Assembly (NCBI GenBank): GCA_039715015.1
Contig: JBDLIE010000005.1
Coordinates: 32,001 to 96,000, forward strand
Source: Thermodesulfobacteriota bacterium
GTDB taxonomy: Bacteria > Desulfobacterota > Desulfobulbia > Desulfobulbales > SURF-16
Direction of reading: 5' to 3'
Length of the DNA stretch: 64,000 nucleotides
The notes below the pieces were generated by a model that was not told the origin of the DNA, did not search any database, and saw nothing but the letters and a program-made list of their open reading frames with translations. A program made the position numbers and the translations under genes. This document shows, piece by piece, positions 13,825 through 33,795 of this stretch; position 1 is the stretch's first letter; every line of letters begins with the position of its first letter.

Positions 13825-14505
13825 ATGTATATCGAATGTGAAAACCTGAACAAAAAATACAAGTCTGAAGGGGCTGTTTTAACAGCAGTTGATCAAGTCA
13901 ATCTTCAGGTGAACAAAGGGGAGTTCGTCGTCATCTTGGGTCATTCCGGTTCTGGAAAGACGACGCTTCTATCATTAATTGGCGGATTAACCAAGCCCGA
14001 TGGCGGCACGGTTAGAATCGACAATATTGATAATTGGCAGCAGGCTGATGATGAGCTTGCTGTGATGCGCAATAAGAAGATCGGCTTTATTTTTCAATTT
14101 GCCAGTCTTATCCCCACCCTGACTGTTCTCGAGAATATTCTTTTACCTCTTTCCTTCACAAGCGACCCGCAAGGGGACAGGCAATATGCATTGGACCTTC
14201 TGGAGAGAGTCGGCCTCAGTGGCCGGCAGGATGATCTTCCCGGCCAATTGTCAGGCGGCCAGCAACGCCGTGTCGCCATTGCCCGTTCTTTTATAAATCG
14301 CCCAGATATTATTTTAGCAGACGAACCCACAGGTGATCTGGATGAAGAGACTGAGAAAGAAATTCTTGCCATTTTTAAGGATTTTAATAAACAGGGGATC
14401 ACTTTTCTTGTTGTAAGCCATAATAAAGATCTGGCTCTCAGTCAGGACAGACCGCGTATGTTAACCATGAAAAACGGCTCTTTAGCTGAGACTTCTTCTC
14501 CATGA
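13825..14505 (+). CDS. LolD/MacB-type ABC ATP-binding protein
   Basis: GHSGSGKT, LSGGQQRRVAIAR, ADEPTGDLD; start re-called to ATG 13825. Confidence 0.92.
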   Translation: MYIECENLNKKYKSEGAVLTAVDQVNLQVNKGEFVVILGHSGSGKTTLLSLIGGLTKPDGGTVRIDNIDNWQQADDELAVMRNKKIGFIFQFASLIPTLTVLENILLPLSFTSDPQGDRQYALDLLERVGLSGRQDDLPGQLSGGQQRRVAIARSFINRPDIILADEPTGDLDEETEKEILAIFKDFNKQGITFLVVSHNKDLALSQDRPRMLTMKNGSLAETSSP

Positions 14506-14996
14506 AAAAACTTTTTTTATTGTGCACCCTGTTGCTATGTTTAGCCGCTTGCGGGCAGTCCCAACAGGCTCCAGAGCTGCAGGTCGGTGGACCAGCTCCT
14601 GGATTTTCCGGCCTTGATATTTCAGGTAATTCCTTTGACCTGGCTGATTTTTCTGGAAAGCCGGTTATTATTCGTTTTTGGTCAACTGAGTGTAATTACT
14701 GCCGGGCAGACACCCCTGTTTTTAATAAGTTGTACGCGAAATATCACGACAAGGGCCTACAAATTGCTTATATTAATACATTGTCAAGTTTGCCCCAGGT
14801 TAAAGAGTTTGTTGCTGATCTTGCTATTACATTCCCTGTCCTCATGGACGAGGATGGAACCATGGCGCGTAGCTACCAGGTGAAGCTTGTTCCCCAAACA
14901 ATAATTATCGATAAAAAACACAACATTGCTGCTGCTATTCTTGGCGGTGTCAGTGAAAAGGAAGTTATGGATTTGCTTCAGGAGGATTTGAAATAA
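14502..14996 (+). CDS. TlpA/ResA-like thiol-disulfide oxidoreductase lipoprotein
   Basis: Lipobox LAAC; FWSTECNYC (CxxC); VPQTIIID. Confidence 0.88.
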   Translation: MKKLFLLCTLLLCLAACGQSQQAPELQVGGPAPGFSGLDISGNSFDLADFSGKPVIIRFWSTECNYCRADTPVFNKLYAKYHDKGLQIAYINTLSSLPQVKEFVADLAITFPVLMDEDGTMARSYQVKLVPQTIIIDKKHNIAAAILGGVSEKEVMDLLQEDLK

Positions 14997-14997
14997 A

Positions 14998-15501
14998 ATG
15001 AGAACTTTGAAAAACATCTTTGTGGTCCTGTGTCTTGCTTTCTTGGCCTCTTCTGCTGTTGCCGTTGCCGAACCATTAGAAAATATTGCCGATGATAGCC
15101 GTTGCAATGTCTGTGGTATGTTTGTTGCCAAGTATCCCAATTGGCTCACCCAGGTTCATAGAGCCGATGGACAGGTTTCCCTTTTTGACGGGGTCAAGGA
15201 TATGATGGTCTTTTATTTCAACCCAGAGAAATATGGTGCCAAGGCAGACACTTTAAAGGATATTTGGGTAAAAGATTATTACACCATGAATTGGCTTGAT
15301 GGCCGTAAAGCCCTCTACGTTGTTGGTAGTGATGTTCATGGCCCCATGGGCCACGAATTCATCCCCTTTGCCAGTCATGAAGCAGCGGCATCTTTCTTAA
15401 AAGATCATTCTGGTAAAGCCATCCTTGCCTTTGATGATATTACCTCTGAAAAGGTGGAATCCATGCGCATGGGTATGAAGATGAAAATGAAGATGAAATA
15501 G
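14998..15501 (+). CDS. nosL: NosL-family copper chaperone
   Basis: Signal peptide; RCNVCGM, FDGVKD, VVGSDVHGPMG; Met-rich tail. Confidence 0.85.
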   Translation: MRTLKNIFVVLCLAFLASSAVAVAEPLENIADDSRCNVCGMFVAKYPNWLTQVHRADGQVSLFDGVKDMMVFYFNPEKYGAKADTLKDIWVKDYYTMNWLDGRKALYVVGSDVHGPMGHEFIPFASHEAAASFLKDHSGKAILAFDDITSEKVESMRMGMKMKMKMK

Positions 15502-16990: not shown

Positions 16991-16994
16991 GTTC

Positions 16995-18730: not shown

Positions 18731-19258
18731 TCAGAGGGTGGGGGGGAATTTTTGGAGTTTGCGCTGCAGGGTGCGGCGATGAATACCCAGCTTCTTAGCG
18801 GCCTGTGAAATATTATTGTTGCAGTCGCTTAAAACACGGCTGATATGCTCCCACTCAACCCGGGCAAGGGATGGAGCACTGATGCTGTCATCTTCCATTT
18901 CACGGAGATCTTCCGATTCAAAGGCAGCTATAATATCTTCAACTTCAGCAGGTTTGGTGAGATAGCCGATTGCTCCAAGCTTAATCGCCTTGGTGGCTGT
19001 GGCAATGGAGCCATAACCCGTCAAAACTACGGCTCGTAGATCGGGGTGGTGCCGCATGCCAGTCCGGATGACGTCAAGTCCTGACTTCCCTTCCATCTTG
19101 AGATCCACAACGGCAAAGGCGGGCTTGTGTCGCGCAATGATCTCCACAGCCCCGATGTAGTTACTCGCAGTCTCTACGTCGAAGCCACGGCGCTCTAGGG
19201 CCTTGGATAAACGGTTCCGGAAAATATCCTCGTCATCAACAAGTAAAATGGTCGGCAT
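18731..19258 (-). CDS. regA: RegA/PrrA/ActR-family response regulator
   Basis: VVLTGYGSIATA, SLARVEWEHI, NISQAAKKLGIHRRTLQRKL. Confidence 0.92.
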   Translation of the reverse strand: MPTILLVDDEDIFRNRLSKALERRGFDVETASNYIGAVEIIARHKPAFAVVDLKMEGKSGLDVIRTGMRHHPDLRAVVLTGYGSIATATKAIKLGAIGYLTKPAEVEDIIAAFESEDLREMEDDSISAPSLARVEWEHISRVLSDCNNNISQAAKKLGIHRRTLQRKLQKFPPTL

Positions 19259-19263
19259 GGTTC

Positions 19264-20619
19264 TTACACCTCCAAATCAGAGTCTGTTTGGGTGGCTAAT
19301 GATTTGCTGAAAGAGATAGTTATAGTTGTTCCTGTGTCTTCATGGCTTTCAATATCGAGGGCCCCTTCGAGCTGGGTTGCCAACGATTTTGCCAGAAAAA
19401 GGCCAAGTCCCATACCCTTGCCAACAGGTTTTGTGGTGAAGAAAGGGTCTGTCGCCTGTTCAGCAACTTCTTGTGACATACCACAACCTTGATCAGTTAC
19501 TATGAAATAAATGTACTCGCCATCCTCTTTACATTCAAGGGTGATTTCTCCGTCAGGCGGGCTTGCATCTGCTGCATTGGATAACAGGCCCTTTAATGAC
19601 CAAGAGACAGCATGAGAGGGGACATGGAGTTGTTTGCTTGGAAGCATATTGTTTACAACAAGGTTTTGAGAGATATTGCCAAGCAATTCTCGAGCGCTTT
19701 CGATGAGTTCATCAGTGGTACTGGGAGTATGTTTTTCCCCTTGGATAGCGCCGGCATCTGCAGACATTTGAAAGAGGATCTTTTTGCAACGGTTGGTTTG
19801 TTCCCGAATGAGCTGGGCGTCATCTAAGAGATCTTTGTCATAGATTTCATTCTCACAATGATAGACCATTTCCCCTGATGCCAGACCAATGGTGGCGAGG
19901 GGGGTGGAGAGTTCATGGGCAGCCCCTGCAGCCAGGGTGGCAAGAGCGCTAAGCTTGTCGTTTTGCAGCTTTTCCTGGCGCAGCTTGGCAATGGTACGAT
20001 GATAGTCCCTGAGGGATTGTTGGATGCGTGAAGCGAAAAAGGTGATCAAAACGGCACTAACAGCATAGGCAAACCACATACCCTGTAGATGAAGATCCAT
20101 ATTAAAATTAGTGATATTGCAAACCTGCTGAACCTCCTGACTTGCCCCAGCTCCACTTTGTTTGAGAAGTGAGGGCAGAAACATGCCCCCATAAGAAAGA
20201 ATTGTAGAGATGGAAAGGCCCCAGGCAAGAAGAGATGATAACAAGATGGCGCCAAGGGTGATATGGACCAGATAGATAAAGGTAAATGGGTTCATTGTGC
20301 CGCCAGTAATATAGAGCAACCCTGTGAGAAGGATTATGTCGCCATATAAAGTCAGAGGCAGAAGATATTCAGGTGGTGGCTTTTGGTGGCTGTGAAGACG
20401 AAGAGCAAGGGCGGTGTTGGTAATAATTTCAACAATAATTACAGTACTGACGGCAAAGATAGGAAGGTCAAGATGGAAAAAGAATGAACCAATGGCAATG
20501 GTGAGAATCTGGCCAGCAACGGCCCACCATCGCAATTTGACTAACCAGTTAAGGCCAATACTCCGCGTATCATGGAGATTTTGTTGTGATTCTAAGCTGG
20601 TAAAAAGTGAGTGATGCAT
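19264..20619 (-). CDS. regB: RegB/PrrB/ActS-family sensor histidine kinase
   Basis: LRWWAVAGQ, TGGTMNPF (quinone-site GGxxNPF), AAGAAHELSTPLATI, RCKKIL redox Cys, GMGLGLFL. Confidence 0.92.
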   Translation of the reverse strand: MHHSLFTSLESQQNLHDTRSIGLNWLVKLRWWAVAGQILTIAIGSFFFHLDLPIFAVSTVIIVEIITNTALALRLHSHQKPPPEYLLPLTLYGDIILLTGLLYITGGTMNPFTFIYLVHITLGAILLSSLLAWGLSISTILSYGGMFLPSLLKQSGAGASQEVQQVCNITNFNMDLHLQGMWFAYAVSAVLITFFASRIQQSLRDYHRTIAKLRQEKLQNDKLSALATLAAGAAHELSTPLATIGLASGEMVYHCENEIYDKDLLDDAQLIREQTNRCKKILFQMSADAGAIQGEKHTPSTTDELIESARELLGNISQNLVVNNMLPSKQLHVPSHAVSWSLKGLLSNAADASPPDGEITLECKEDGEYIYFIVTDQGCGMSQEVAEQATDPFFTTKPVGKGMGLGLFLAKSLATQLEGALDIESHEDTGTTITISFSKSLATQTDSDLEV

Positions 20620-20751
20620 TTGGTGTTGATTTAATAATTAATAGAAAAAATGCTCTTAATTAAAACACGTTAGCATATCAATTTTATGGCTGCTAGGTAT
20701 TTGAAAAAAGGCTTTGGCATAGCTTGGTGAAAAGGGAAAAAACAGGCCTAT

Positions 20752-20766
20752 GCGACAATTTGCCAC
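20752..20766. promoter_or_regulatory. RegA-like box upstream of regB (copy 1)
   Basis: GCGACaatttGCCAC, identical to 30681-30695. Confidence 0.6.
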
Positions 20767-20877
20767 ATTTTTCCGGTCGGCAACTTGTGTTCATGTGAAT
20801 CCTTTACATATTTCTGATGAGCGAACCCAAGTAAACATTGAATATTTACCCTTTTATCCTTCTGCTTGTTATGTTGA

Positions 20878-21180
20878 GACACCTTAAACAGCATCATCGT
20901 CGATAAAACCCGCGAATATTTTTGCAAGCATGGGTTTGACATAACAACCAATGAATTCCCTGATCATCTTGTTGTTGAGCTTGACTTCATCGCCTCGCCT
21001 GAGGATGAAAAAGAGGCCAGCAGCGAAGAATTTCTGCGCATCTATTTCCGGCCTTGGTTTGGTCAATTTCGCAACCTTGTTTGTAAAGAAGTTGAGGTTC
21101 GCGATATTAAAGCGGCTGTGGAGGGGGTAGATTTTTTCACGAGCAATGAGACTGACGCGGACTCGGACCAGGCCGCTTAA
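20878..21180 (+). pseudogene. Truncated TorD/DmsD chaperone remnant, paralogous to 30893-31444
   Basis: Translates DTLNSIIVDKTREYFCKHGFDITTNEFPDHLVVELDFIASPEDEKEASSEEFLRIYFRPWFGQFRNLVCKEVEV..., collinear with the C-terminal half of the intact copy; in-frame TGA just upstream and no start codon. Confidence 0.9.
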
Positions 21181-21359
21181 GATTAGAGCCCTAGAAGGCA
21201 TATTTTTTTATGGTCTTCATCCATTTGGACACTTTGAATTAGTCCTACTCCGCGCCGCCGCACACCCTTGCGGCTGTCAATGAAATCTCCCCCCCCCCTT
21301 CACCTGCCGCGGGAAACACTCCCCTTTGCGGGGCGAGAATAGAAGCCCCTTCCCAGCCT

Positions 21360-21392
21360 GCGACACTTCACCAATCTGCGACAATTCGCCAT
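21360..21392. promoter_or_regulatory. RegA-like boxes upstream of the TonB-dependent receptor operon
   Basis: GCGACacttc (half site at 21360) and GCGACaattcGCCAT (21378-21392), directly before a TTGATA -35-like hexamer. Confidence 0.5.
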
Positions 21393-21491
21393 ATTGATAA
21401 AAATTGTATCGGTGGTGTTAACTATTCCTAGAGATTTTCAAGTCTCTGAAATGAATCTTATTTTTTAACTTTAACAAGAGAGTACTGAGGC

Positions 21492-23588
21492 ATGATTCTG
21501 CGATGCAATGAACGTACTTTATTGCGCGCTGCCCTGGTTACCGGGACAGCGGCATTCTTTGTTTTGCCGCAACAGGTTTTTGCGGCTGAAGACCAGGTTG
21601 TCGAACTCAGTGACGTTGTTATCACGGCCTCCAGGATCAGTCAGCAGGTTAAGGATGCCCCGGTTGCCATCAGTATTGTTTCCGAACAGGAACTGGACAA
21701 AATAAAGGCCAGGAATCCGCAAGAGTTTCTTTCCAGGGTCCCAGGTGTCAACTCCAGTAACTTTGGCGGTGAATCAGAGCTTACCTCCATCAGGATACCA
21801 ACCCATTTCACCAATCCATATACCGTTGTGTTGGTTGATGGCGTGCAGTATGGCAGCTATGGTTCCGGTAGCTCGAGCCAGTTTCGGGAGATTAACCTCA
21901 ACAACATCGCACGTATCGAGGTGATCAAAGGGCCTGCCTCAGCTCTGTATGGCAGTAACGCCATCGGCGGTGTCATTAACGTGATCACCAAGGAGCCTTC
22001 AGCTTTCCCCCAGGCCAGGATCTGGTCGGAACTGGGAGATTACAGGCAATGGCGGGCCGGCGTCTCCGGCAGTGGCGGATTTGATAAACTCAGCTATTTT
22101 ATCGACGCCAATCACACCGATACGGAAGCTGCCCGGGAGCATAGTGGTGTTGATAAGCAGTCTGGCTCCGTGAAGTTGAACTATACCGCCACTGATGTGT
22201 CATTGCTGACCTTTAAAATAGACTATGTCACTGTCGAGAATGACTCCCCAGGCTCTATTAACCAGGATGATTTCGAAGAAGACTGGCTGCAGAGTTATCA
22301 TAATTTTGCCTACAACAAGTCAGACAGGGTGGCACCTGCCCTCTCCTATGTCCATTATCTTGATGCTGCTGAGATGCGGGCAATTTTTGTCTTACGGGAC
22401 ACTGAGGAGGAAACCATACCTAACTACAGCATTCGCCAGCTGACCTTTGGCCCATTTCCACGCCCCTATATTGGCAGTTATACAGAGGATGACAGTCTCG
22501 ATATGAGCCTGCAGCTCTTATATAGTCACGACCTCTCCCTTTGGCGCAGCAAGGTAATTGTCGGCCTTGATACGGAGTATGGCAGCAAATATTCAAAGAC
22601 CTATGACCTTTCGGTATCCTATGACAGCGCTCTCAACAAATATGAGAGCTATACCTTAGGGGACCTCGACAAGTCCTATGATATGACAACCAAGGTGGCA
22701 GCGCCATATCTGCAGCTCGAGAGTTCCCCTTGGAAAAAGCTGCGCATAACTGTCGGCGCCCGCTATGACTCGGCCCGGTATGAAGTTGAAGATCAATTGA
22801 GCAACAGCATTGAAAACAAGCGGGGGTTTGCCAAGACCAGCCCCAAAGCCGGTGTTACCTATGATATTAATGCCAACCTCAACACCTATGTCAGTTACTC
22901 AAAGGGCTTTGTTGTGCCCACCACTAGTCAGCTGTGGACCTCGCGCTATGACAACGCCGATCTGGATCCTGAAAATGCCGAAAATTATGAGGTCGGTCTG
23001 CGCAGCAGCTTTATGAACAGACGTCTTAGGCTCGACATCTCTGTTTATGATATGACTATCACAGATAAGATCGTTATCAACAACACCCCGGCGCCGAATA
23101 CCCGCTACATAAATGCGGGTAAGAGCTCACAGAAAGGCATCGAGGTAATGACCTCTTACGCGCCGCTGGAAAGCGTTCAGTTGAGTGTTGCCTACACATA
23201 TGCCCGCAACAAGTATGAATCTTATAGTGATCAGGGTGTCGATTATAGCGGCAACTGGCAACCGCGCTCCCCTAAACATCACCTCAACGCCCGCCTGTCT
23301 GTATTCCCAGTCGACGGTGTAGAGGTCGAGCTGGAAATGGATGAGGTCAGCAGCCAGTTTGCTGACGACGCCAACCTTTTTGAGTACACCAGGCCTACCC
23401 TTTTTAACCTCCGCGCCTCATACTACTGGAAGCGCTTCACTTTCTGGGGCCATATCCTGAATCTTACCGATAAGGAGCATGCAAACTATATGAGCTATAG
23501 TACCTCGGAAGACACCATGACCCTCTTTCCTGGTATTGCCAGAACGGCATTTGTCGGCCTTTCCTATCGGTTCGGAGGAGACAAGTAG
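21492..23588 (+). CDS. TonB-dependent outer-membrane receptor
   Basis: Signal peptide; TonB box DVVITASR; plug motif IARIEVIKGPASALYGSNAIGGVINVITK; beta-barrel end RTAFVGLSYRF. Confidence 0.95.
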   Translation: MILRCNERTLLRAALVTGTAAFFVLPQQVFAAEDQVVELSDVVITASRISQQVKDAPVAISIVSEQELDKIKARNPQEFLSRVPGVNSSNFGGESELTSIRIPTHFTNPYTVVLVDGVQYGSYGSGSSSQFREINLNNIARIEVIKGPASALYGSNAIGGVINVITKEPSAFPQARIWSELGDYRQWRAGVSGSGGFDKLSYFIDANHTDTEAAREHSGVDKQSGSVKLNYTATDVSLLTFKIDYVTVENDSPGSINQDDFEEDWLQSYHNFAYNKSDRVAPALSYVHYLDAAEMRAIFVLRDTEEETIPNYSIRQLTFGPFPRPYIGSYTEDDSLDMSLQLLYSHDLSLWRSKVIVGLDTEYGSKYSKTYDLSVSYDSALNKYESYTLGDLDKSYDMTTKVAAPYLQLESSPWKKLRITVGARYDSARYEVEDQLSNSIENKRGFAKTSPKAGVTYDINANLNTYVSYSKGFVVPTTSQLWTSRYDNADLDPENAENYEVGLRSSFMNRRLRLDISVYDMTITDKIVINNTPAPNTRYINAGKSSQKGIEVMTSYAPLESVQLSVAYTYARNKYESYSDQGVDYSGNWQPRSPKHHLNARLSVFPVDGVEVELEMDEVSSQFADDANLFEYTRPTLFNLRASYYWKRFTFWGHILNLTDKEHANYMSYSTSEDTMTLFPGIARTAFVGLSYRFGGDK

Positions 23589-24640
23589 TGCCTTCTTTTT
23601 CAGGTGGTATACCGGGGCTTAAGGGCTCGGTCTGTTTTCTGACTTCAGTTATGCCGTTTCTTTTGCTGGGCGTTGCGACAGTGACTGAGGCGCAAGGGCT
23701 TCCCCCTTTGCGCCTCGCCCTTTCGCCCACTGCCCCTGTCGGTGAAGAATGCCTAGCGCATGGTCAAGGCGGCCCTGCCAAGGGCGGCAAGGCTGTAGAT
23801 GACCGGCGGCCGGTACTTGAGTCAGAGCATAGACCACTGCCTGTCCGCACCTACCACTTCAACGCTCATCGTCGCTTGGCCGATGTAAAGGCCTATGTCC
23901 GGCATCCCGATGGCACAGTAGATGTGCCTGAACTTCGCCTGGGGGCCAATCCGCAACTTACTTTTAAAACACCCTTTGGCGATGGCCCCAATCATGGGGC
24001 ACACAATGTCTATGTTGTCGAGCAGGGCGTTGAGGGAGATGTCCTGGTTGTCCGCACCGCAAAATGGATTGTCATGCACCATAGCTGCGGTTGGGGACAT
24101 GATCAAAAATTTAATGAGCAGCTCACCCAACCTCAACCTCTTGAGTCCATTCCCATGGAAATTCTGATCTCAGACCTTTGGGACGGCAATTTCCACTTCC
24201 GGGTGACCACAGGTCAAAAACTTTCAATAACAGTGCTGCGGAATGGTCACCCCCTTGCCAAAGCCCGGGTAAGCGTGAGGAGTGAGCAAGGCTGGGTCAA
24301 AGAGGTAGATGCAGATAAAGATGGTGTCGCCACCTTTCAGCTGATCAGGGATTATTACCCCACCAGATGGCAGGAGTTTCACCGCACCCGGCGGGGCGAG
24401 TTTTTGGCCACGGCAACCTACGAGGCAGAGGAGCACGGCGAATATAAAGGGATACCGTATGGGCGTGTGCGCTATATCACAACCCACCCCTGGACCTATG
24501 GCCCTTCAAGCTGGGACTATGCCTCCTATTCGATGGGTTTGCTGATCGCCGTCATTGCCATGGCCCTTACCGGTGGCGGTGTATTTATCTATCGTGAACG
24601 GCGCAAAAAGCCTTATCAGGAGATTGTTTTTGAAGAGTAA
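23588..24640 (+). CDS. Periplasmic His-rich protein with C-terminal membrane anchor (DUF4198/CbiL-like)
   Basis: Signal-like N-terminus; NHGAHN and MHHSCGWGH; GHPLAKARV...DADKDGVATF carboxypeptidase-regulatory-like fold; C-terminal TM helix followed by RERRKK. Confidence 0.65.
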   Translation: MPSFSGGIPGLKGSVCFLTSVMPFLLLGVATVTEAQGLPPLRLALSPTAPVGEECLAHGQGGPAKGGKAVDDRRPVLESEHRPLPVRTYHFNAHRRLADVKAYVRHPDGTVDVPELRLGANPQLTFKTPFGDGPNHGAHNVYVVEQGVEGDVLVVRTAKWIVMHHSCGWGHDQKFNEQLTQPQPLESIPMEILISDLWDGNFHFRVTTGQKLSITVLRNGHPLAKARVSVRSEQGWVKEVDADKDGVATFQLIRDYYPTRWQEFHRTRRGEFLATATYEAEEHGEYKGIPYGRVRYITTHPWTYGPSSWDYASYSMGLLIAVIAMALTGGGVFIYRERRKKPYQEIVFEE

Positions 24641-25619
24641 ACTGCAGACCGCCATCAATAACTGTAATGTCAGCCGCTTTCGGTTTTACGTGCAGATCTT
24701 CAGCTTTGCACTCCTCGTTTATGGTGGATACCTGGCCATAAATATTGGCGACCAGTTGCCAACCTTTGCGTGTGTGTTCGATCAAATGAGGGGAGGGGCC
24801 TGCTACCTCATGGGCCTGCAGCATCAGATGACCACCCCCTTCAAGAGCTATTTCAGCGGCCGGGGCATTGGTATGCTGACTGGGCTGCTGACTTTTTTTC
24901 TCTTTTTTATCGCCCTCAACAAGGCCTGGTGCGGTTTTGTTTGCCCCCTTGGCACCCTTCAGGACTGGCTGAGCAGCCTGCGCCGTAAATTCGGGATCCG
25001 GTACGCAACGTACTCGGCACAGAATTTCAAGGGCCTCGGTACCATCAAGTATATCCTGCTGGCCCTGTTGATTCTTCTCCCCATGGCCATAGGCAACAGC
25101 TTTTTCGGCCTGCCCAAGCTCAATCATGATTTTGGCGTGCCGTTCTGCATGATTTGTCCGGGGAGAACCCTGCTCCCGGTTTTTCATGGTGATTTTTCGC
25201 AGTTCATCATCGATTTCAGTTCAAAGACCAAGATGGTCTTCACGGCCCTGGGTATGGCGGTGACAGGTATGTTATTGGCCGGCGCCTTTGCGAAGAAGCG
25301 GTTCTTCTGCCTCTTTTGCCCGATGAGCGCCTTTCACTATATCTTCCACAAGGCAGGCTTGCTGCGCCTTACCAAGGATGGCAGCAAGTGCACCCGTTGC
25401 GGAAACTGTTACCGGGCCTGTGATGTTGGTATCCATGCCATCGCCGATGACTTGACCCATAAAAATATTATCAAGGATGATTGCATGATGTGCCTGAAAT
25501 GCATTGAAGCATGCCCGGAGGAAGATTGCCTGAAGGCTTCTTTTTTTGCAATGCCGGTTTATGAGTCAAGCGCCCAAGGGTTTTTTAAAAGGATGCAGGG
25601 GAAATGTCATGGAAAATGA
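24630..25619 (+). CDS. NapH/MauN-like membrane 4Fe-4S protein
   Basis: WCGFVCPLG, FCMICP, FCLFCPM; two ferredoxin motifs CTRCGNCYRAC and CMMCLKCIEACP; start re-called to TTG 24630 after AGGAG. Confidence 0.88.
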   Translation: MKSKLQTAINNCNVSRFRFYVQIFSFALLVYGGYLAINIGDQLPTFACVFDQMRGGACYLMGLQHQMTTPFKSYFSGRGIGMLTGLLTFFLFFIALNKAWCGFVCPLGTLQDWLSSLRRKFGIRYATYSAQNFKGLGTIKYILLALLILLPMAIGNSFFGLPKLNHDFGVPFCMICPGRTLLPVFHGDFSQFIIDFSSKTKMVFTALGMAVTGMLLAGAFAKKRFFCLFCPMSAFHYIFHKAGLLRLTKDGSKCTRCGNCYRACDVGIHAIADDLTHKNIIKDDCMMCLKCIEACPEEDCLKASFFAMPVYESSAQGFFKRMQGKCHGK

Positions 25620-26922
25620 ACGACTAAGGCGAGTGCGGAAGACGACCCTTCTTCATTTGGCCATGGAGGCCAAGAACACCCTGCTGAAGATAGAAGAAGA
25701 GTTTCCCGATAACCCGGCGGCAATGGACTACTTCTACACGCTCTATAAGGATGTATTCAACGACGAGCCGAAGCTGCCCACCGATAAGAAAATTATCGGG
25801 ACGATGTGCGTCCAGGTCCCCCAAGAGCTTATACATGCTGTTGGGGCATTCCCCTTACGGTTATGCAATGGGGCTAGTGCCTATGATCAGGTAGGTGCCG
25901 AGTTTATGCCTGCCAAGTCCTGCCCTGTGGTGCGGGCGACAATGGGCATGCTTCATGTCGACCAGGCGCTGTGGGGGGAATCCCTGCAGGCCGTCGTCAT
26001 CCCTACCACCTGCGACCAAAAGAAAAAATCATGCCAGATTCTTGCCGATATGGGCTACCCAGTCTATGCCCTGGACATGCCAGCGACCAAGGAGAGCGAG
26101 GCCTCTCGTTTTTATTGGCAGGAGTCGATAAAAAAATTCACCCTGGATATGCAAAAAATAACCGGGGTGAAAATAACTGCAAAGCGTGTCCAGGCAGCCA
26201 TAGCAAAAGTAGCCTCAGCATCATCCCTGTACCGGAAGTTGCAGGAATTGCGAAAATCTGATTATGCCCTGATTCTTGGCAAGGATATGTTTTTGGTCAC
26301 CAATGCCTATTTTTTTGATGAAATTGATCGCTGGCAGCAGTCTGTCAGCCGGCTGGTCGCCGAATTGGAAGAACGTAAACGAAACGGCTTTAGCGCCGGC
26401 AAGCGCCAGGCCCCACGCATCCTTTTTACCGGTTCGCCACCAATATTTCCCAACCTCAAGGTTCCCATTCTGGTGGAACAGGCCGGCGGGGTTATCGTGG
26501 CAGATGAAACCTGCTCGTCGGGAAGACTTCTCTATGATTCCGTTGCCTTTGATGAAGCAACTCTCAACGACATGATTCCCGCTCTTGCCGACCGCTCCCT
26601 GAAGCCCTGCACCTGCCCATGTCTCACCCCAAACAAGGACCGGCTGCGGAAGCTCATTAACATGGCCAAAGAATTTGAGGCCGATGGCGTTGTCTATCAG
26701 GCTTTTTCTGGTTGCCTCCCCTATGAAATGGAGCAGAAGCAGGTTGCCAAGGCCCTGGCCGAAGCCGAAGTGCCGATGCTATATGTTGAAACCGACTATA
26801 GCCCTGAAGATATGGGGCAGCTTTCCACACGGATAGAGGCCTTTATCGAATCGATCCTGGCCCGGAGAAGAAAAAAGAAGGTTGCCCAGCTTCATCAGAA
26901 GGCAGGTGAGGAAGGCTCGTGA
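25609..26922 (+). CDS. 2-hydroxyacyl-CoA dehydratase (HgdB/FldB-C) family protein, probable double-cubane-cluster reductase
   Basis: GTMCVQVPQEL, RLCNG, SCPVVR, TTCDQKKK, DETCS, CTCPC, SGCLPY, ETDYS...TRIEAF; start re-called to ATG 25609. Confidence 0.85.
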   Translation: MENERLRRVRKTTLLHLAMEAKNTLLKIEEEFPDNPAAMDYFYTLYKDVFNDEPKLPTDKKIIGTMCVQVPQELIHAVGAFPLRLCNGASAYDQVGAEFMPAKSCPVVRATMGMLHVDQALWGESLQAVVIPTTCDQKKKSCQILADMGYPVYALDMPATKESEASRFYWQESIKKFTLDMQKITGVKITAKRVQAAIAKVASASSLYRKLQELRKSDYALILGKDMFLVTNAYFFDEIDRWQQSVSRLVAELEERKRNGFSAGKRQAPRILFTGSPPIFPNLKVPILVEQAGGVIVADETCSSGRLLYDSVAFDEATLNDMIPALADRSLKPCTCPCLTPNKDRLRKLINMAKEFEADGVVYQAFSGCLPYEMEQKQVAKALAEAEVPMLYVETDYSPEDMGQLSTRIEAFIESILARRRKKKVAQLHQKAGEEGS

Positions 26923-27734
26923 ACTACTTTGCAGGTATTGATATCGGTTCGACCTCGATAAAGATTGTTCTGGCCGACGACAATGAACAGATTGTTGCCT
27001 CAGATGTCTGTCCGACTGGCAGTTTTTTTCATAAAAATACCATGACTGCCTTTGCTGGTTTATTGACCCAAAAAAATATCGATCGCCAGGAGGTGGTCTA
27101 TATCATTTCCACCGGCTATGGCCGTAAGCTTTTCAAAGAGTCCGACGAGACTATCAGCGAGATCACTGCCAATGCCATTGGCGCCCGTAAAATCGGTGAG
27201 CGCTATGGCCAGACACGGACAATCATCAATATTGGCGGCCAGGACTTGAAGGTAATTCTTCTTGATGACGAGGGCCATGTTAAAAACTTTGCCATGAACG
27301 ACAAGTGTGCGGCTGGTACCGGCCGCTTTCTGGAGATGACTGCCCGCAACCTGGAGGTTGAGGTTGATGAGCTTGGTGACTTTCATGAAAGGTGCGCCAC
27401 TATTCCGTTAATCATTAACAGCACCTGTACTGTGTTTGCCGAGTCTGAGATTATCAGCCTGCTCGCCAACGGTCATGGCAAAGAAGAACTCATTACCGGC
27501 ATTCACTATTCCGTTGCCAGAAGGGTAGCGCGTCTGGCAAAACGCCATGGCGTAGAGGACATGGTCTTCTTTGATGGCGGGCCTGCCTTAAATCAGGGTC
27601 TTGTTAAGGCCCTGGAGGATGAGTTGATGCACCGGGTTGTTGTCCCCGACACTCCACAGATTACCACCGCCTATGGTGCTGCCTTGTTGGCCAGGGACGC
27701 CTATCTCTGTGAAGACGAGGTGGTTAATGGCTGA
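26919..27734 (+). CDS. ATP-dependent activator (BcrAD/BadFG/HgdC family)
   Basis: GIDIGSTSIK, TGYGR, IGGQD, MNDKCAAGTGRFLE, STCTVFAESE. Confidence 0.93.
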   Translation: MNYFAGIDIGSTSIKIVLADDNEQIVASDVCPTGSFFHKNTMTAFAGLLTQKNIDRQEVVYIISTGYGRKLFKESDETISEITANAIGARKIGERYGQTRTIINIGGQDLKVILLDDEGHVKNFAMNDKCAAGTGRFLEMTARNLEVEVDELGDFHERCATIPLIINSTCTVFAESEIISLLANGHGKEELITGIHYSVARRVARLAKRHGVEDMVFFDGGPALNQGLVKALEDELMHRVVVPDTPQITTAYGAALLARDAYLCEDEVVNG

Positions 27735-28332
27735 ACTCTTCAGCTTTCTCGGCCTCGGTGTACTGTACGGCTGCACCATGTGTAGCTTTACCTGCCTGCC
27801 ATACCTGGGCATCTATCTCATGGGTACTGGCCAGGGTTTTGGCGACGGGGTGCGGGCATCGTTTTTTTTTCTGCTGGGAAAGGTTTGCACCTATACCTTG
27901 TTCGGGGCCTTGGCCGGGGCCTTGGGGATGGTCCTTGATTTGAGCGCCACCCAGGGCAAGGTATTGGGCCTTGTCTTGATAACGACCGGTATTTTCTTGC
28001 CCTTTGTGGCCAGGAAGCAATGCCAGGGGACTTGCCGGCAATCAGGGAAAAGACTCTCTCTCTTTTCCCTGGGCATGGCCACCAGTCTGTTACCATGCCC
28101 GCCCTTGGCTGCGGTTTTTCTTGTGGCTGCCCAAAAAGGCTCCTGGCTCCTGGGGGCAGGATACGGAGCGCTGTTCGGTCTGGGCCTTTTTGTGTCGCCG
28201 CTCCTGCTGGCTGGAGGAGGGCTGGCCCATATAACAAAGACAATCCAGTTTGAAGCAAAGGGATTCACCCCCTACCTGCAGGGTATTTCCATGTTGATAA
28301 TAGTAGTGATTGGTCTGCGAGTTTTTATCTAA
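27727..28332 (+). CDS. DsbD_2/UreH/TauE-like membrane protein
   Basis: CTMCSFTC, GKVCTYTLFGALAG, LLPCPPL; start re-called to ATG 27727. Confidence 0.78.
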   Translation: MAELFSFLGLGVLYGCTMCSFTCLPYLGIYLMGTGQGFGDGVRASFFFLLGKVCTYTLFGALAGALGMVLDLSATQGKVLGLVLITTGIFLPFVARKQCQGTCRQSGKRLSLFSLGMATSLLPCPPLAAVFLVAAQKGSWLLGAGYGALFGLGLFVSPLLLAGGGLAHITKTIQFEAKGFTPYLQGISMLIIVVIGLRVFI

Positions 28333-28338
28333 GGGGGA

Positions 28339-28773
28339 ATGGCTATGGAATGGCTTAAGGATGTCATTGATTATGGAATAATTGGTTTCTTGCTGGTGAT
28401 GAGTGTGGTTGCATGCGCCATCGCCATAGAAAGGTTCTTGGTTTTTCGTTCTATCAGGCTTGACGACTACCCCAACAAGCAGCTCTTGCAGATTGAGCTC
28501 ACCAAAAAGCTGCATGTCATTGCGATCATCGGCAGCAATGCCCCCTATTTGGGTCTGCTTGGCACGGTCCTCGGTATTATGCTGACCTTCTATAATCTGG
28601 GCCGGGAAGGCTTTATGGATACCAGCGAGATAATGGTGGGTTTGGCCTTGGCCCTGAAGGTAACAGCTGTTGGCTTGGTCGTGGCGATTCCGGCCGTTTT
28701 TCTTTATAATATGCTGCTGCGCCAGGCAAAGGTGCTGATGTTGCAATGGGAGAGTACCCATGGACGAGACTGA
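28339..28773 (+). CDS. exbB: ExbB (short form)
   Basis: IGSNAPYLGLLGTVLGIM, LALKVTAVGLVVAIP. Confidence 0.9.
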   Translation: MAMEWLKDVIDYGIIGFLLVMSVVACAIAIERFLVFRSIRLDDYPNKQLLQIELTKKLHVIAIIGSNAPYLGLLGTVLGIMLTFYNLGREGFMDTSEIMVGLALALKVTAVGLVVAIPAVFLYNMLLRQAKVLMLQWESTHGRD

Positions 28774-29140
28774 GTTCAATACCTTGAATGTGATCCCCCT
28801 CGTCGATGTGATGCTGGTCTTGCTGACCATTGTTTTGATGACATCGACTTTTATTGCGGTGGGCGGACTTTCCATTGAATTGCCGCAAGCCGCCGGGGAA
28901 AAAGTGGAAATGTTAAAGACGCTGACCATCGAAATAGATAGTGAGGGCACCATATTTCTTGAGGCCGCGGCAATATCACTTGCCGGGTTGACTGATTCCT
29001 TGGCCGGAACCGATAAGGAGACACCCCTAATCATCCGGGCCGACAAGAAATTGGCCTTACAACATTTTGTTGAGGTGATGAGTGCGGCAAAGGCTTTGGG
29101 TTTCACCAAGGTAAGCCTGCAAACCGAGGTGACCTCATGA
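28760..29140 (+). CDS. exbD: ExbD
   Basis: NVIPLVDVMLVLLTIVL, IIRADK. Confidence 0.9.
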   Translation: MDETEFNTLNVIPLVDVMLVLLTIVLMTSTFIAVGGLSIELPQAAGEKVEMLKTLTIEIDSEGTIFLEAAAISLAGLTDSLAGTDKETPLIIRADKKLALQHFVEVMSAAKALGFTKVSLQTEVTS

Positions 29141-29871
29141 ATTATCAAGGCTGGGGCTTAGGAATATCCATGATGCTCCATGGCCTTTTGGCCTGGGGGC
29201 TGTTGAGCACAATTACCACTTCCACCCTGAATCCCTTGGACGGCAAGAGCCGGATAAGCCTTGATTTCTGCCTGCTGCCTCTCCAGGCGGTGGTGCTGGC
29301 ACAAAGCTCACCATCTCCGCCCCAACCTAGGAAGGTGGTGAAAAAAAAACCAGCCACGCCTGTCAAGGTGCGGGAGATAGCCAAACCTGAAGCCAGCAAG
29401 AAAAAAACTGTCGTTGCCGAAAAACAACCCGATCCGGCCCAGGTTGCCCCGGCACTGGCTGAAGAACGGCTGGTTGCCAAACAGGAAGTTGGAGCTGAAG
29501 ATTTGCCGCCAGCCGGCTTTAGCGAGGCTGGGCCGGGCACGGCTGACGAGGCTGCCACCGTTCCGCAGGCTTCTCTGCAAGCCGCCAAACGGCAGCAGTA
29601 TGTTGATACCTATTTTTCTGATATCTGCCAAAAGATACAGCAAAACATGCGTTATCCCAAACTAGCCCGCCGTATGGGCCTGGAAGGGAAGGTTGTGGTC
29701 TCATTTATGGTTCATAAAGATGGCAATATTGATGATGTGCGTATAGTGCAAAGCTCCGGGGTGAGAATTCTTGATAAAAACGCCATTGATACCATAAAAA
29801 ATACGGCCCCCTTTCCGAAGCCGCCGATCACTGCCGAGTTGATTGTGCCGATCAAATACGGTTTGGTCTGA
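29137..29871 (+). CDS. tonB: TonB energy transducer
   Basis: TM helix with SMMLH, Pro/Lys-rich linker, YPKLARRMGLEGKVVVSF, SSG...LD. Confidence 0.9.
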   Translation: MNYQGWGLGISMMLHGLLAWGLLSTITTSTLNPLDGKSRISLDFCLLPLQAVVLAQSSPSPPQPRKVVKKKPATPVKVREIAKPEASKKKTVVAEKQPDPAQVAPALAEERLVAKQEVGAEDLPPAGFSEAGPGTADEAATVPQASLQAAKRQQYVDTYFSDICQKIQQNMRYPKLARRMGLEGKVVVSFMVHKDGNIDDVRIVQSSGVRILDKNAIDTIKNTAPFPKPPITAELIVPIKYGLV

Positions 29872-30022
29872 AACCGTTGATCCTTGCAGGTCTTCTTGCC
29901 TGTAATCCCATGGCAGGTAATGTAACTGCCTGCTGTTAATGGCTTTTTCCAAGACTCTCATTTCATCGACTTAGATACAAATCCAAAGACCTGGCAGGTA
30001 TCGGCTAGGTGCTTGGATTTTG

Positions 30023-30063
30023 TGGTACTTGAGCGAGAATCAAACTCGAACGGGCGCAATGTC
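30023..30063 (-). pseudogene. Possible degenerate tRNA 3' half (long variable arm, Leu-like)
   Basis: Minus strand GACATTGCGCCCGTTCGAG-TTTGATT-CTCGCTCAAGT-ACCA: T-arm-like stem-loop and ACCA end, followed by a hairpin at 29978-30022. Confidence 0.35.
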
Positions 30064-30256
30064 AAACCGCTTTGAAAATTAACCTCTCAACCGCGTCCAA
30101 TTTTGCCCCCTTATTTTAAACAAAAGAGATCATTTTCTGTTTTTCAACCTCCAATTCTCCCTTGTGAAGAGTGTCATTGCAGGGCCAATCAGCAACCGGT
30201 TCTTTACGGAGCGTCAGGGGCTCAGTCGGGGTGATTCTTGCCAAGGCGGTTGGCTC

Positions 30257-30553
30257 CTACTCTCTGGCAATGGTGCGGTGTCACTCGCTTAAGGATTGCT
30301 GAATGTGCGAGACGAAAAAGGTCGTTAAAATTGCACTTATGGCAGAAGCAAGCTCCATACCCTATAGATGAAGGTCCATATTCAAGGTAGTAATAGTGCA
30401 AACCTGCTGGAAAAGAAATGAACCGATCTTGATCGTAAGAATTTGGCTGGCCACGGCCCACCAACGTAATTTTAGCAGCCACAAGAGACCAATTCGCTTG
30501 GTGTTATGAGTATTTTGCTAAGGATTCAGTCTGCTTAGAAAAGTGGGATCCAT
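30257..30553 (-). pseudogene. regB remnant with internal deletion and stop codons
   Basis: MDPTFLSRLNP*QNTHNTKRIGLLWLLKLRWWAVASQILTIKIGSFLF|QQVCTITTLNMDLHL*GMELASAISAILTTFFVSHIQQSLSE*HRTIA; matches two separate segments of RegB at 19264-20619. Confidence 0.9.
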
Positions 30554-30680
30554 TGTGTTTGGTTGAGGTGGAAGGGAAGGTGTCGACTGAATCAAAATCA
30601 GCACATCAACCTCAAGCCCGCCAACCACCTAAGGGACACTTTCTCAATATCTTTTGGCCAAAAGGATCAACGAGACTTAT

Positions 30681-30695
30681 GCGACAATTTGCCAC
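30681..30695. promoter_or_regulatory. RegA-like box upstream of the torD-molybdoenzyme operon (copy 2)
   Basis: GCGACaatttGCCAC; flanks shared with 20749-20791 (tatgcgacaatttgccacatttt...aacttgtgtt). Confidence 0.6.
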
Positions 30696-30892
30696 ATTTT
30701 CCCTGCCGCTAACTTGTGTTAAGGAGAATCGTTTACAAGGAAAAGGTGAATTGGCCTAAGTATGCAATGCTTATACAAAATTCATTCTCTTATTTTTTTT
30801 AACGAGTATGTAAAGCTCCTTTGAATATTTGATTCTCATTTTTTTTATTTTGTAATGAGTACACCAATATATTCTGACAACCACGGTATCTT

Positions 30893-31444: not shown

Positions 31445-31544
31445 GCGGGCTGTGAACAGGCCGCTTAATATATGAGTCTACAAAGCATATTTTTTTTGAA
31501 GCTTACTGTTTCAAATAATTAAAACCTGAGGGAGGTAAGAGAAT

Positions 31545-33749: not shown

Positions 33750-33795
33750 GACTTTATAAGCCTACGAGATACTCTATTAAGGAGGATTTACCGTT

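Follow-up and report, generated by a model that had tools for sequence, protein, structure and literature searches.

The operon and its genes

The window considered here, a stretch of 64,000 nt from a Thermodesulfobacteriota bacterium (GCA_039715015.1, contig JBDLIE010000005.1, forward strand 32,001 to 96,000), carries at 21492..29871 all nine co-oriented genes of the original prediction. In order, they encode a TonB-dependent receptor (TBDR), a periplasmic protein termed P2, a NapH-like protein, a double-cubane cluster protein (DCCP), an activase, a DsbD_2-family protein, ExbB, ExbD and TonB (Table 1). These domain assignments match the gene content proposed earlier (receptor, periplasmic protein, NapH-like protein, HgdB-family protein, activator, DsbD_2-like protein and ExbB-ExbD-TonB). 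The frames overlap or nearly abut, as had been claimed: with revised starts, the coordinates give overlaps of 1, 11, 11, 4, 8, 14 and 4 nt and one 6-nt gap. The DsbD_2 start was corrected to ATG 27727. For the NapH-like gene, a start at 24555 was rejected in favour of TTG 24630, which has AGGAG 7 nt on its 5′ side; homologues of the longer frame have stops inside its first 22 codons.

Table 1. Features of the operon and of the flanking DNA (positions in the window)
Feature	Position	Strand	Evidence or remark
TlpA-like thioredoxin	14502-14996	+	Pfam
NosL	14998-15501	+	Pfam
RegA-like response regulator	18731-19258	-	best NCBIfam ActR/PrrA/RegA, 187.6 bits vs 250
RegB-like histidine kinase	19264-20619	-	best NCBIfam ActS/PrrB/RegB, 224.7 bits vs 350
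Decayed TorD-like fragment, read as insertion scar	20881..21153	+	left of operon
Operator-like box GCGACAATTCGCCAT	21378..21392	+	114 nt 5′ of receptor start
TonB-dependent outer-membrane receptor (TBDR), 698 aa	21492..23588	+	Pfam Plug 4e-25, barrel 2e-43
P2, periplasmic two-domain beta protein, predicted DUF4198 fold, His/Cys signature, C-terminal membrane anchor	23588..24640	+	
NapH-like four-helix membrane polyferredoxin, 329 aa	24630..25619	+	Fer4_5, Fer4_10
DCCP, 437 aa	25609..26922	+	NF040772
HgdC/BcrAD-type ATP-dependent activase, 271 aa	26919..27734	+	TIGR00241, BcrAD_BadFG
DsbD_2-family membrane protein	27727..28332	+	Pfam DsbD_2
ExbB, short ExbB2 type	28339..28773	+	TIGR02805
ExbD	28760..29140	+	Pfam ExbD 1e-26
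TonB	29137..29871	+	TonB_C 1.5e-21; TIGR01352
Two decayed RegB-like fragments, read as insertion scar	30263..30553	-	right of operon

No NCBIfam equivalog reaches its cut-off on the receptor, whose closest solved structures are YncD (4e-37) and PqqU. A DVVITA stretch follows its signal peptide and is, by its motif, presumably the TonB box. Since two receptor types with a mutual identity of only about 25% accompany one and the same module in related loci, the receptor is not diagnostic. ExbB and TonB score 165 bits on TIGR02805 (cut-off 135) and 73 bits on TIGR01352 (cut-off 27), respectively, and no ABC importer was found within the operon.

The DCCP scores 364.6 bits on NF040772 (cut-off 350), its residues 33-416 match 6ENO and 7YYL at 2e-77, and all seven reference cysteines are present (Cys 67, 86, 105, 135, 302, 336/338 and 369). 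Accordingly, the protein first described as HgdB-like belongs to the double-cubane group and not to the CoA-ester dehydratases, the grouping that had been named as an argument against the prediction. It is the only DCCP of the genome. The adjacent activase is equally clear (TIGR00241, 239 bits against a cut-off of 125; BcrAD_BadFG, 2e-54). The pair thus resembles DCCP/DCCP-R of Carboxydothermus hydrogenoformans (6ENO, 7YYL) in its NF040772 score, its seven cysteines, its neighbouring HgdC-type ATPase and its long N-terminal region, which aligns with 6ENO; such an extension is tied to narrow channels and small substrates in the available part of a review (PMC7317905). The Carboxydothermus pair, as that part of the review describes it, is soluble, stands alone and has no known physiological substrate, whereas the pair of the operon is flanked by genes for a polyferredoxin of the membrane, for a capture protein of the periplasm and for TonB-dependent import.

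The DsbD_2-family protein scores 56.4 bits (cut-off 24.9; Pfam 5e-15) and has invariant cysteines in a CxxxC motif of helix 1 and a PCPP motif of helix 4. Its Atlas neighbours are DsbD_2 clusters, often fused with HMA, FtrD-like or cupredoxin domains, and the HMA fusion concerns 46-98% of members in several of them. The protein may therefore be a Cys-lined metal permease and not a thiol-redox protein alone.

P2 and the NapH-like protein

P2 starts with a signal peptide and ends with a membrane helix followed by a conserved basic tail. The description of P2 as His-rich is borne out moderately, as it contains only 15 His in 350 residues (4.3%). What characterizes it is an invariant His/Cys signature (ESEHRP, GDGPxHG and HHxCGWGH), with H136, H165, C167 and H171 among the residues invariant across 30 sequences. 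On Pfam DUF4198 it reaches only 23.7 bits (cut-off 34). The AlphaFold2 model (pLDDT 78.6), however, finds as its best Foldseek matches Zcp (9mhl, 3.4e-10) and the Ni-bound DUF4198 protein 9gcb, with a probability of 1.00, and the matched Zcp structures bind Zn, Cu or Co. DUF4198 proteins are periplasmic metal binders in the accessible text of PMC12663993, and P2 is predicted by its model to have the fold of these metal-capture proteins, an assignment that is new here. Zcp of Neisseria gonorrhoeae and 9gcb share with P2 the two-domain beta fold, the periplasmic location and the association with a TonB-dependent receptor; P2 differs by falling below the Pfam cut-off and by its own His/Cys signature, C-terminal helix and basic tail. 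In addition, Zcp is, in the same portion of that paper, soluble, Zur-regulated and dispensable for uptake.

The NapH-like protein scores 73.8 bits on the NapH model (cut-off 234) and combines Fer4_5 with two ferredoxin motifs. It has 17 invariant cysteines, four of which lie, with one His, in two loops that the prediction places on the periplasmic side. Proteins that naturally join P2-like and NapH-like parts in one chain are described here for the first time: Ruminococcus-type proteins of 575-615 aa combine a beta domain and a single helix with a NapH-like part, and the beta domain of the fusion model again finds Zcp/DUF4198 as first Foldseek match (9mhj, 4.8e-5). Moreover, the P2 fold matches at TM 0.82 an Atlas cluster of 795 aa, with Fer4_5 in 99% of its members and NosL in 20%. 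Because of these fusions of their relatives, P2 and the NapH-like protein appear to form one functional unit, and the site of reduction may consequently be the periplasmic side of the inner membrane and not the cytoplasm. In the extracytoplasmic domains of the Ruminococcus-type fusions, neither His nor Cys is invariant anywhere; metal capture is therefore not common to all relatives.

A complex prediction with the NapH-like protein and P2 residues 78-350 gave a score of 0.59 (best of three controls, 0.01). Of 157 solved complexes 116 reach this mark, as do 2 of 215 mismatched pairs; among those that reach it with 0.60 or less are only 18 of the solved complexes and both passing mismatches. At least 86% of contacts are common to the runs, the partner pLDDT is at least 73, and the model lends weak support to an association.

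NapH/Fer4_5-type polyferredoxins occur with periplasmic beta-sandwich metal proteins in FtrABCD/P19-type iron uptake and in the CcoG cupric reductase, and the operon resembles both in pairing such a membrane protein with a periplasmic metal protein. It differs from these systems by the absence of Ftr1 permease, P19 and cupredoxin and by the presence of an ATP-driven double-cubane reductase and TonB import genes. We know of no nos system with a DCCP or an activase, and in the window NosL lies outside the operon. The nos accessory set (NosA, NosL, NosR/NosH; NosL is the subject of PMC6530538 and PMC8457098) is nevertheless similar in its outer-membrane metal receptor, its nearby NosL chaperone and its membrane Fe-S protein of NapH-like type, which is presumed to act on a metal centre in the periplasm.

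Conservation, neighbours and regulation

The predicted co-occurrence of receptor, HgdB, HgdC and NapH families is found across genomes as conserved synteny, beyond what chance would give, and the loss of synteny that had been named as a refutation is not what is seen: NapH-DCCP-activase is kept in all seven loci around DCCP orthologues in relatives, the nine-gene order recurs in 7 of 7 of these loci, and 30 loci with this order were located via P2. Among 31 clustered loci, several of which stop at contig ends, accounting for some missing families, the counts are TBDR 30, P2 30, NapH-like 29, DCCP 28, activase 27, ExbB 24, ExbD 24, DsbD_2 21 and TonB 20. The gene cluster is a conserved possession of sulfide-zone bacteria. 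The core (NapH-like protein, DCCP, activase and Cys-rich membrane protein) also occurs on metagenomic contigs lacking any TonB genes, with Ruminococcus sp. given as the source of their proteins; this TonB-less core is new here, and the reductase core predates the TonB part and is more widely distributed. The literature search found no paper that joins these modules or describes the operon, in agreement with the earlier statement that no described pathway links them.

Decayed fragments lie on both sides of the operon (tblastn): the TorD-like one matches its resident TorD-like counterpart over residues 93-183 with 68% identity, and the RegB-like ones match the resident kinase over residues 164-212 (67% identity) and 1-49 (59%). 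NosL genes adjoin 7 of the 31 loci, a new observation; in L026 and L045 NosL is on the operon strand and adjoins operon genes, and in L048 the activase is followed by a TlpA-like gene. In the window, the TlpA-like and NosL genes (14502..15501) are probably regulon partners of the operon. A search of the genome for NosZ gave no match, and neither did its search control.

The box upstream of the receptor is a putative RegA-type operator, new here. Of 30 related loci, 12 have a box of this type between -450 and +60 relative to the receptor ORF, and its density is 0.85 per kb in this region against 0.047 per kb in all locus DNA. Further boxes are found in the window at 13676, in the NosL/ABC cluster, and at 30681, at a PhsA/PsrA-like reductase operon. 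Three further loci (L034, L046 and L050) have a RegBA-like pair next to the operon, and L029 has only the kinase there. The search of this clade's loci revealed neither a metal-responsive regulator nor a riboswitch. The operon is probably regulated by the RegB/RegA-type redox pair at 18731..20619 and not by a metal sensor.

Candidate roles of the module

The proposal that a scarce ligand is imported and subjected to ATP-driven reduction remains the best frame, in which we infer both the cargo and the target of reduction. Our tentative reading, which we hold to be possible, is TonB-energised capture-and-reduce uptake of a tightly bound thiophilic trace metal, with copper as first guess and nickel, cobalt, zinc or iron as further candidates. 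Specifically, the receptor with its own ExbB-ExbD-TonB would bring a metal complex, probably sulfide- or ligand-bound in sulfidic habitats, into the periplasm, where P2, anchored in the inner membrane and sitting on the NapH-like protein, would capture the metal at its invariant His/Cys site. The NapH-like protein would join this site to the cytoplasmic reductase pair through its four invariant periplasmic cysteines, the CxxxCP/CxxCP motifs in its membrane part and two [4Fe-4S] clusters on the cytoplasmic side. The activase would use ATP to drive very low-potential electrons into the double-cubane protein, so that the cargo is released or converted, and passage through the inner membrane, of either the metal or reducing equivalents, would be the task of the Cys-lined DsbD_2 protein. 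The redox two-component system would turn the operon on via the conserved operator.

This reading builds on what the genes encode and how strictly they occur together, on the metal-capture fold predicted for P2 and on the P2-like/NapH-like fusions. As for copper, we know of no uptake step that needs a very low potential, and no heme-copper oxidase was found in the host genome (99.99% complete). Moreover, terminal reduction is the only role known for double-cubane proteins in the available part of PMC7317905, and a transfer of electrons from there to the NapH-like protein would therefore be unprecedented.

It is somewhat unlikely that, as in sister clades, cobalt or a corrinoid is the imported cargo. 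The corrinoid would then enter through the receptor, the His/Cys site of P2 would hold it, and the ATP-driven pair would reduce the cobalt, releasing and activating the corrinoid, with the module standing in for a BtuFCD importer. The Co(II)/Co(I) couple lies at about -610 mV, a potential that fits an ATP-driven reductase, and the operon has no ABC importer. In addition, a Cobalamin riboswitch, newly seen here, lies directly 5′ in two of six distant variants of the phylum sample: at 115 bits before genes for P2-like, NapH-like, DCCP and Aminotran_1_2 proteins (L156), and at 106 bits before ExbB, ExbD, TonB, P2-like, NapH-like, DCCP, activase and TBDR (L160). However, the P2-like proteins of these variants share 15-17% identity with P2 and have none of its His/Cys motifs, the riboswitch reaches its gathering score in none of the 33 loci of this clade, window included, and the neighbours in this clade are NosL and TlpA-like genes rather than cobalamin genes.

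We regard as unlikely that the module exports ATP-boosted electrons via the NapH-like protein to the periplasm, there to activate or maintain a metal site or enzyme (P2 itself or a neighbouring propeller enzyme, compare NosR/NosH for N2O reductase), with the receptor supplying metal only. The invariant periplasmic Cys and His of the NapH-like loops, the fusions, the operator common to the operon and the NosL/ABC cluster and the core devoid of TonB genes agree with such a role; the operon, however, encodes no periplasmic Fe-S or flavin partner, and the terminal-reductase precedent counts against it. All 8 operon-carrying relatives have a 405-aa protein that the neighbouring cluster encodes, but so do 15 of 33 relatives lacking the operon.

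There is little likelihood that the DCCP reduces an imported non-metal small compound in the cytoplasm (in catabolism, respiration or detoxification), with P2 as a mere binding protein. The C. hydrogenoformans DCCP reduces acetylene, according to the portion of PMC7317905 available, and both the redox-type control and the box shared with the PhsA/PsrA-like operon would suit this role; against it stand the predicted fold of P2, the lack of a permease for an organic compound, the NosL neighbours and the HMA domains on DsbD_2 relatives. Finally, it is very improbable that a chalcogen is mobilised, selenium first, with insoluble elemental or metal-bound Se reduced to selenide for selenophosphate synthesis and a thiol relay crossing the membrane: the Se(0)/HSe- couple (about -730 mV), the Cys-rich membrane parts and the genome's own SelD with an in-frame TGA are met by the fold and His-rich site of P2, which favour a metal cation, by recurrent flank families free of selenium genes and by a tRNA-Sec gene near one locus only. 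In the available text of a preprint (10.1101/2022.07.06.499078), 955 of 970 strong NF040772 proteins are in SelD-encoding assemblies, a point in favour of selenium, and its SAO locus likewise links NF040772 proteins to uptake, with reduction of an imported metal-bearing cargo proposed; as described there, it differs in its ABC importer, which has selenoprotein subunits, in its MerB-like lyase and in lacking TonB genes, a NapH-like and a DUF4198-like protein.

If capture-and-reduce uptake is true, the operon would give a clue to the natural role of the double-cubane enzyme, namely the uptake of a tightly bound trace metal or metal cofactor.

Conservation and gene content of the operon

The operon consists of nine co-oriented genes encoding, in order, a TonB-dependent receptor, a periplasmic beta protein (P2), a NapH-like membrane protein, an HgdB-family double-cubane cluster protein (DCCP), an HgdC/BcrAD-type ATPase (activase), a DsbD_2 protein, ExbB, ExbD and TonB, and both the layout and the identities put forward in the original prediction were confirmed by Pfam and NCBIfam. 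In particular, the first gene product carries the Plug and barrel domains of a TonB-dependent receptor, and a dedicated Ton complex accompanies it, with ExbB (TIGR02805), ExbD and the TonB C-terminal domain all matched. The start of the NapH-like gene was moved from a longer frame to a TTG preceded by AGGAG, because in homologues that frame is interrupted by stops within its first 22 codons, and the start of the DsbD_2 gene was corrected to an ATG (see table). With these starts, the operon junctions are overlaps of 1-14 nt, with a single 6-nt gap. Scans for consensus promoters and terminators within the operon returned no more sites than in shuffled sequences. The G+C content is 0.49-0.53 in the operon and 0.42-0.48 in the flanks.

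The order was represented by 41 genomes, among them the window's own; eight have an orthologue at least 50% identical to DCCP and seven have P2, and the eighth orthologue-bearing copy lies on a 3.5-kb contig. The genes for the NapH-like protein, DCCP and activase are kept in order at all seven loci fetched, and ExbB-ExbD-TonB as well in five of them. A pattern scan built on the P2 alignment yielded 30 loci, five of which are contigs already among the seven, whose titles are mostly those of Desulfobulbia metagenome-assembled genomes, while one record each bears Spirochaetota, Myxococcota or Krumholzibacteriia in its title. The expectation that synteny would hold in other genomes was thus upheld, first at the orthologue loci and then at the P2 loci. 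Among 31 clustered loci, several of which stop at contig ends, the families were counted as follows: receptor 30, P2 30, NapH-like 29, DCCP 28, activase 27, ExbB 24, ExbD 24, DsbD_2 21 and TonB 20. In an even sample of the phylum, a NapH-like orthologue (E at most 1e-30) was found in 11 of 401 genomes, which makes the operon rare and its distribution patchy. Decay is apparent in some copies, with a split receptor (L029), a stop (L030) or frameshift (L054) in P2, or a split DCCP (L027 and L044).

As judged from sequence models, the HgdB-like protein of the operon is a double-cubane cluster protein. Specifically, it passes the curated cut-off of NF040772 (364.6 bits against 350), and the cysteines of its seven-Cys ligand motif (C67, C86, C105, C135, C302, C336/338 and C369) align with cysteines of 7YYL/6ENO. 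The first Cys spacing is 18 residues, equal to the reference, while a preprint (10.1101/2022.07.06.499078) prints 19. Over residues 33-416 it matches the solved Carboxydothermus hydrogenoformans protein (2e-77), the N-terminal region being aligned too; in a 2020 review (PMC7317905), this region is linked to narrow channels and small substrates, and the physiological function or natural substrate of double-cubane proteins is given as not known. The activase and DCCP genes share 4 nt at the DCCP stop, and the activase scores 239 bits against 125 in TIGR00241. A CoA-ester dehydratase identity of the HgdB-like protein, which the original prediction had named as an outcome that would refute it, is rejected, and so is a benzoyl-CoA reductase identity, as those models stay far below their cut-offs (HadC 97.6 against 700, BzdN 103 against 454) and the operon has no second HGD-D gene, that is, no second catalytic subunit. 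The window's DCCP is the sole one of its genome; a second paralogue, about 33% identical, is often found elsewhere in the genomes of relatives.

The periplasmic P2 protein and its membrane partners

P2 misses the Pfam cut-off for DUF4198 (PF10670): the match is confined to residues 205-252 and reaches 23.7 bits, the threshold being 34. Its AlphaFold2 model (pLDDT 78.6) runs from a signal peptide through a disordered linker and two beta domains to a C-terminal helix. The top Foldseek matches of this model, at probability 1.00, are Zcp of Neisseria gonorrhoeae, whose matched structures hold Zn, Cu or Co, and then a Ni-bound DUF4198 protein (3.4e-10 with a TM by target of 0.61 for 9mhl, and 3e-6 for 9gcb); Atlas DUF4198 clusters match the fold at a TM of 0.73. 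In its predicted structure, P2 has the fold of solved DUF4198 members, though it stays below the Pfam score. Zcp is described in PMC12663993 as the first characterised DUF4198 protein and a periplasmic metal binder. In thirty sequences of P2, E78, Y89, H136, H165, C167, W169, H171 and H203 are invariant and H81 and H164 nearly so, the conserved residues sitting in the motifs ESEHRP, GDGPxHG and HHxCGWGH. These His and Cys residues may be others than the three His of the Zcp metal site. The family comprises about 202 clusters in a collection of 5.8 billion proteins; their names are all hypothetical or DUF4198, and one cluster bears the name of a cultured species. Desulfurivibrio dismutans is the source name of one P2 homologue. 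Selenocysteine in the P2 of L030 was considered and rejected: the in-frame stop aligns with a Tyr of the other sequences, not with the conserved Cys.

The NapH-like protein has a mean column identity of 72%. It does not belong to NapH proper, whose model it misses by far (73.8 bits against 234), and a Pfam search of the nine operon genes for a NapG partner or periplasmic ferredoxin found none encoded. Hydropathy and charge predict four membrane helices, with both ends and the two ferredoxin motifs in the cytoplasm and with four invariant Cys and one invariant His in the two periplasmic loops. Solved relatives were found for its ferredoxin part only, and none for the DsbD_2 protein. The latter scores 56.4 bits against 24.9 in PF13386 and has three invariant cysteines (C49, C53 and C154 in long-frame numbering), in a CxxxC of helix 1 and a PCPP of helix 4. 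Its neighbours in the Atlas, themselves DsbD_2 clusters, frequently carry fused HMA (46-98% of members), FtrD-like or cupredoxin domains; these fusions favour a metal path, thiol-redox transfer being a less likely alternative.

A profile search of 1.84 billion representatives recovered proteins of 575-615 aa in which the NapH-like part is C-terminal. They start with a helix, a beta domain and a helix with a basic tail, which precede a NapH-like part with the same periplasmic Cys pattern, and Pfam named nothing in their first ~280 residues. One such protein falls in a 529-member cluster with the source name Ruminococcus sp.; its model (mean pLDDT 63, beta domain mostly 70-90) has Zcp and 9gcb as first matches. 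Comparison by hhalign of P2 with the ectodomains of the fused proteins gave no significance (E 0.21 and 0.35), and a P2-profile search among longer proteins found none. P2 is linked to the fused proteins by fold, not by sequence profiles. In addition, an Atlas cluster of 795 aa, with Fer4_5 in 99% of members and NosL in 20%, matches the P2 fold at a TM of 0.82. On this evidence, P2 and the NapH-like protein may work as a single unit.

In complex prediction, the NapH-like protein and residues 78-350 of P2 scored 0.59 (best of three controls, 0.01). Of 157 solved complexes, 116 reach the mark that this score passes, as do 2 of 215 mismatched pairs; passing scores of 0.60 or less comprise only 18 of the 157 solved complexes plus both of these mismatches. 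Contact agreement between runs was at least 86% and partner pLDDT at least 73. The predicted complex lends weak support to a physical pairing of the two proteins.

Regulation and genomic surroundings

The two-component pair divergent from the operon is RegB/RegA-like (of ActS/ActR, PrrB/PrrA type), with full-length best matches that stay short of the equivalog cut-offs (224.7 against 350 and 187.6 against 250), and homologous pairs adjoin the operon in three further loci (L034, L046 and L050). In 12 of 30 loci the receptor is preceded by an operator-like box, GCGACAATTTGCCAC; 26 matches occur in 554 kb, 13 of them within 15 kb of upstream DNA. The four copies in the window (see table) suggest one regulon. 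Each of the decayed fragments that bracket the operon shares 59-68% identity with the intact resident gene across the operon from it, which looks like the recombination scar of an acquired cluster and fits insertion by recombination.

Coordinates of features in the window and at related loci
Feature	Location	Remark
Nine-gene operon	window 21492-29871	co-oriented
NapH-like gene start	window 24630	TTG
DsbD_2 gene start	window 27727	ATG
GYGAC-N5-GYCAY box	window 13676	before NosL/ABC cluster
GYGAC-N5-GYCAY box	window 20752	before RegB-like kinase gene
GYGAC-N5-GYCAY box	window 21378	before receptor
GYGAC-N5-GYCAY box	window 30681	before TorD-like + PhsA-like operon
Decayed TorD-like fragment	window 20881-21153	one flank of operon
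Decayed RegB-like fragments	window 30263-30553	other flank of operon
TlpA-like gene and NosL	window 14502-15501	
FmdE/ABC/NosL gene group	window 10103-18678	
TorD-like/molybdoenzyme gene group	window 30893-34596	directly downstream of operon
tRNA-Sec gene	L051:1225-1318	related operon locus
SelD gene	G000:C51:11990-12904	L138, window's own genome
Riboswitch-led distant variant	L156:8271-13045	
Small secreted protein	L059:1348-1878	metagenome locus

NosL genes (PF05573) lie beside 7 of the 31 loci, and in L026 and L045 they share the strand of the operon and adjoin its genes; the window has one with a TlpA-like gene, and in L048 a TlpA-like gene follows the activase. The surrounding group in the window contains FmdE, two MacB-type ABC sets, the TlpA-like gene, NosL, and two proteins outside any Pfam family, 405 aa and 336 aa long. 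The longer of these two is found in 23 of the 41 related genomes, that is, in 8/8 operon carriers and 15/33 non-carriers, all of them kin, and its tie to the operon by co-occurrence is weak. The group downstream of the operon encodes a TorD-like chaperone, a PhsA/PsrA-like molybdoenzyme (439 bits in the PhsA model, cut-off 694) and a four-cluster ferredoxin subunit.

Variants of the core and candidate cargoes

Of the proposal that a TonB-imported scarce ligand is released or converted by ATP-driven reduction, the gene content and synteny are borne out; the import of a cargo and its reduction are what we infer. The prediction knew of no described pathway joining these modules, and word searches of the literature likewise found no paper on the linkage. 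The receptor itself names no cargo: no NCBIfam equivalog reaches its cut-off for it or for eight receptors of another type, and the nearest solved structures, YncD and PqqU, point to no particular ligand.

We tentatively read the operon as a possible capture-and-reduce system for uptake of a thiophilic metal, with copper as the leading candidate in view of the links to NosL, TlpA-like genes and HMA-fused DsbD_2 relatives. A search of the genome for a heme-copper oxidase (COX1) found none, which counts against copper; a parallel search for the NosZ propeller, whose control gave no match, carries no weight here. It also counts against copper that no known step of its uptake needs so low a potential.

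An unlikely alternative is that the cargo is cobalt or a corrinoid. A cobalamin riboswitch stands directly upstream in two of six distant variants from the phylum sample (L156 and L160), and in L156 it is followed by genes for a P2-like protein, a NapH-like protein, DCCP and a class I/II aminotransferase, with no activase in the 20-kb stretch by tblastn with the window's. The P2-like proteins of these two loci share 15-17% identity with P2 but none of its motifs; in two other distant variants the receptor is adjoined by a bona fide DUF4198 gene, which is present in addition to the P2-like gene. In the operon's own clade, an Rfam scan of window positions 20500-31600, with E up to 1, gave no match, and neither the window nor 32 further loci (L057 left out) hold a riboswitch at gathering score or other RNA; 15 metagenome loci hold no riboswitch at that score either. 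The receptor does not score as BtuB either (TIGR01779, 167.8 against 599.7, and no cobalamin riboswitch upstream). The core appears to serve different cargoes, picked by the ectodomain.

On metagenome contigs, the core (NapH-like protein, DCCP, activase and Cys-rich membrane protein) also exists without TonB. A scan with the fused proteins gave 80 loci, 62 of which were clustered, with a NapH-family ORF in 60. Counting only contigs long enough to show the gene concerned, a DCCP-like gene lies directly downstream of that ORF in 44 of 52 loci, an activase beside it in 38 of 41, a DsbD_2-resembling Cys-rich membrane protein in 33 of 37; upstream, 40 of 43 have a further HGD-D gene, which is divergent. 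In NF040772 the downstream gene scores 314-340 bits, just below the cut-off, and the upstream gene 144-164. Searches of these loci by tblastn with the window's receptor, ExbB, ExbD and TonB gave no matches. No neighbour names a substrate; the genes that recur beside the core are limited to regulators of LysR or OmpR type and those of two small proteins rich in Cys. L059 and 19 other metagenome loci encode a small secreted protein that has a Pro/Thr-rich linker and, at its C-terminus, a four-Cys motif. That the core exports electrons to a periplasmic site, which such TonB-less loci could accommodate, is a rather improbable explanation.

Selenium as the cargo is very improbable. One related operon has a tRNA-Sec gene some 6.5 kb upstream of its receptor, and the SelD gene of the window's genome contains an in-frame TGA, so that the organism uses selenocysteine.

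If the uptake reading with a thiophilic metal is true, it would explain how trace metals bound in very stable complexes become available to anaerobes of sulfidic habitats. The normal inner-membrane partner of TonB uptake routes is an ABC importer; here a redox machine would take its usual place. To judge from the sister clades behind cobalamin riboswitches, the supply of cobalt or corrinoids may likewise be a task of this machine. In any case, the strictly conserved context narrows the search for the double-cubane substrate to a cargo that needs TonB import and periplasmic capture. More broadly, and with considerable doubt, a DUF4198-like ectodomain, the NapH-like protein, DCCP, activase and a Cys-lined DsbD_2 protein may form an ancient modular machine that spends ATP to deliver very low-potential electrons to cargo at the outer face of the cytoplasmic membrane, the exchangeable ectodomain setting the cargo (His/Cys type here, B12-riboswitch type in sister clades). 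If true, this would give double-cubane proteins a first physiological role and amount to a new, ABC-independent way of freeing and importing sulfide-locked or ligand-locked metals and metal cofactors.
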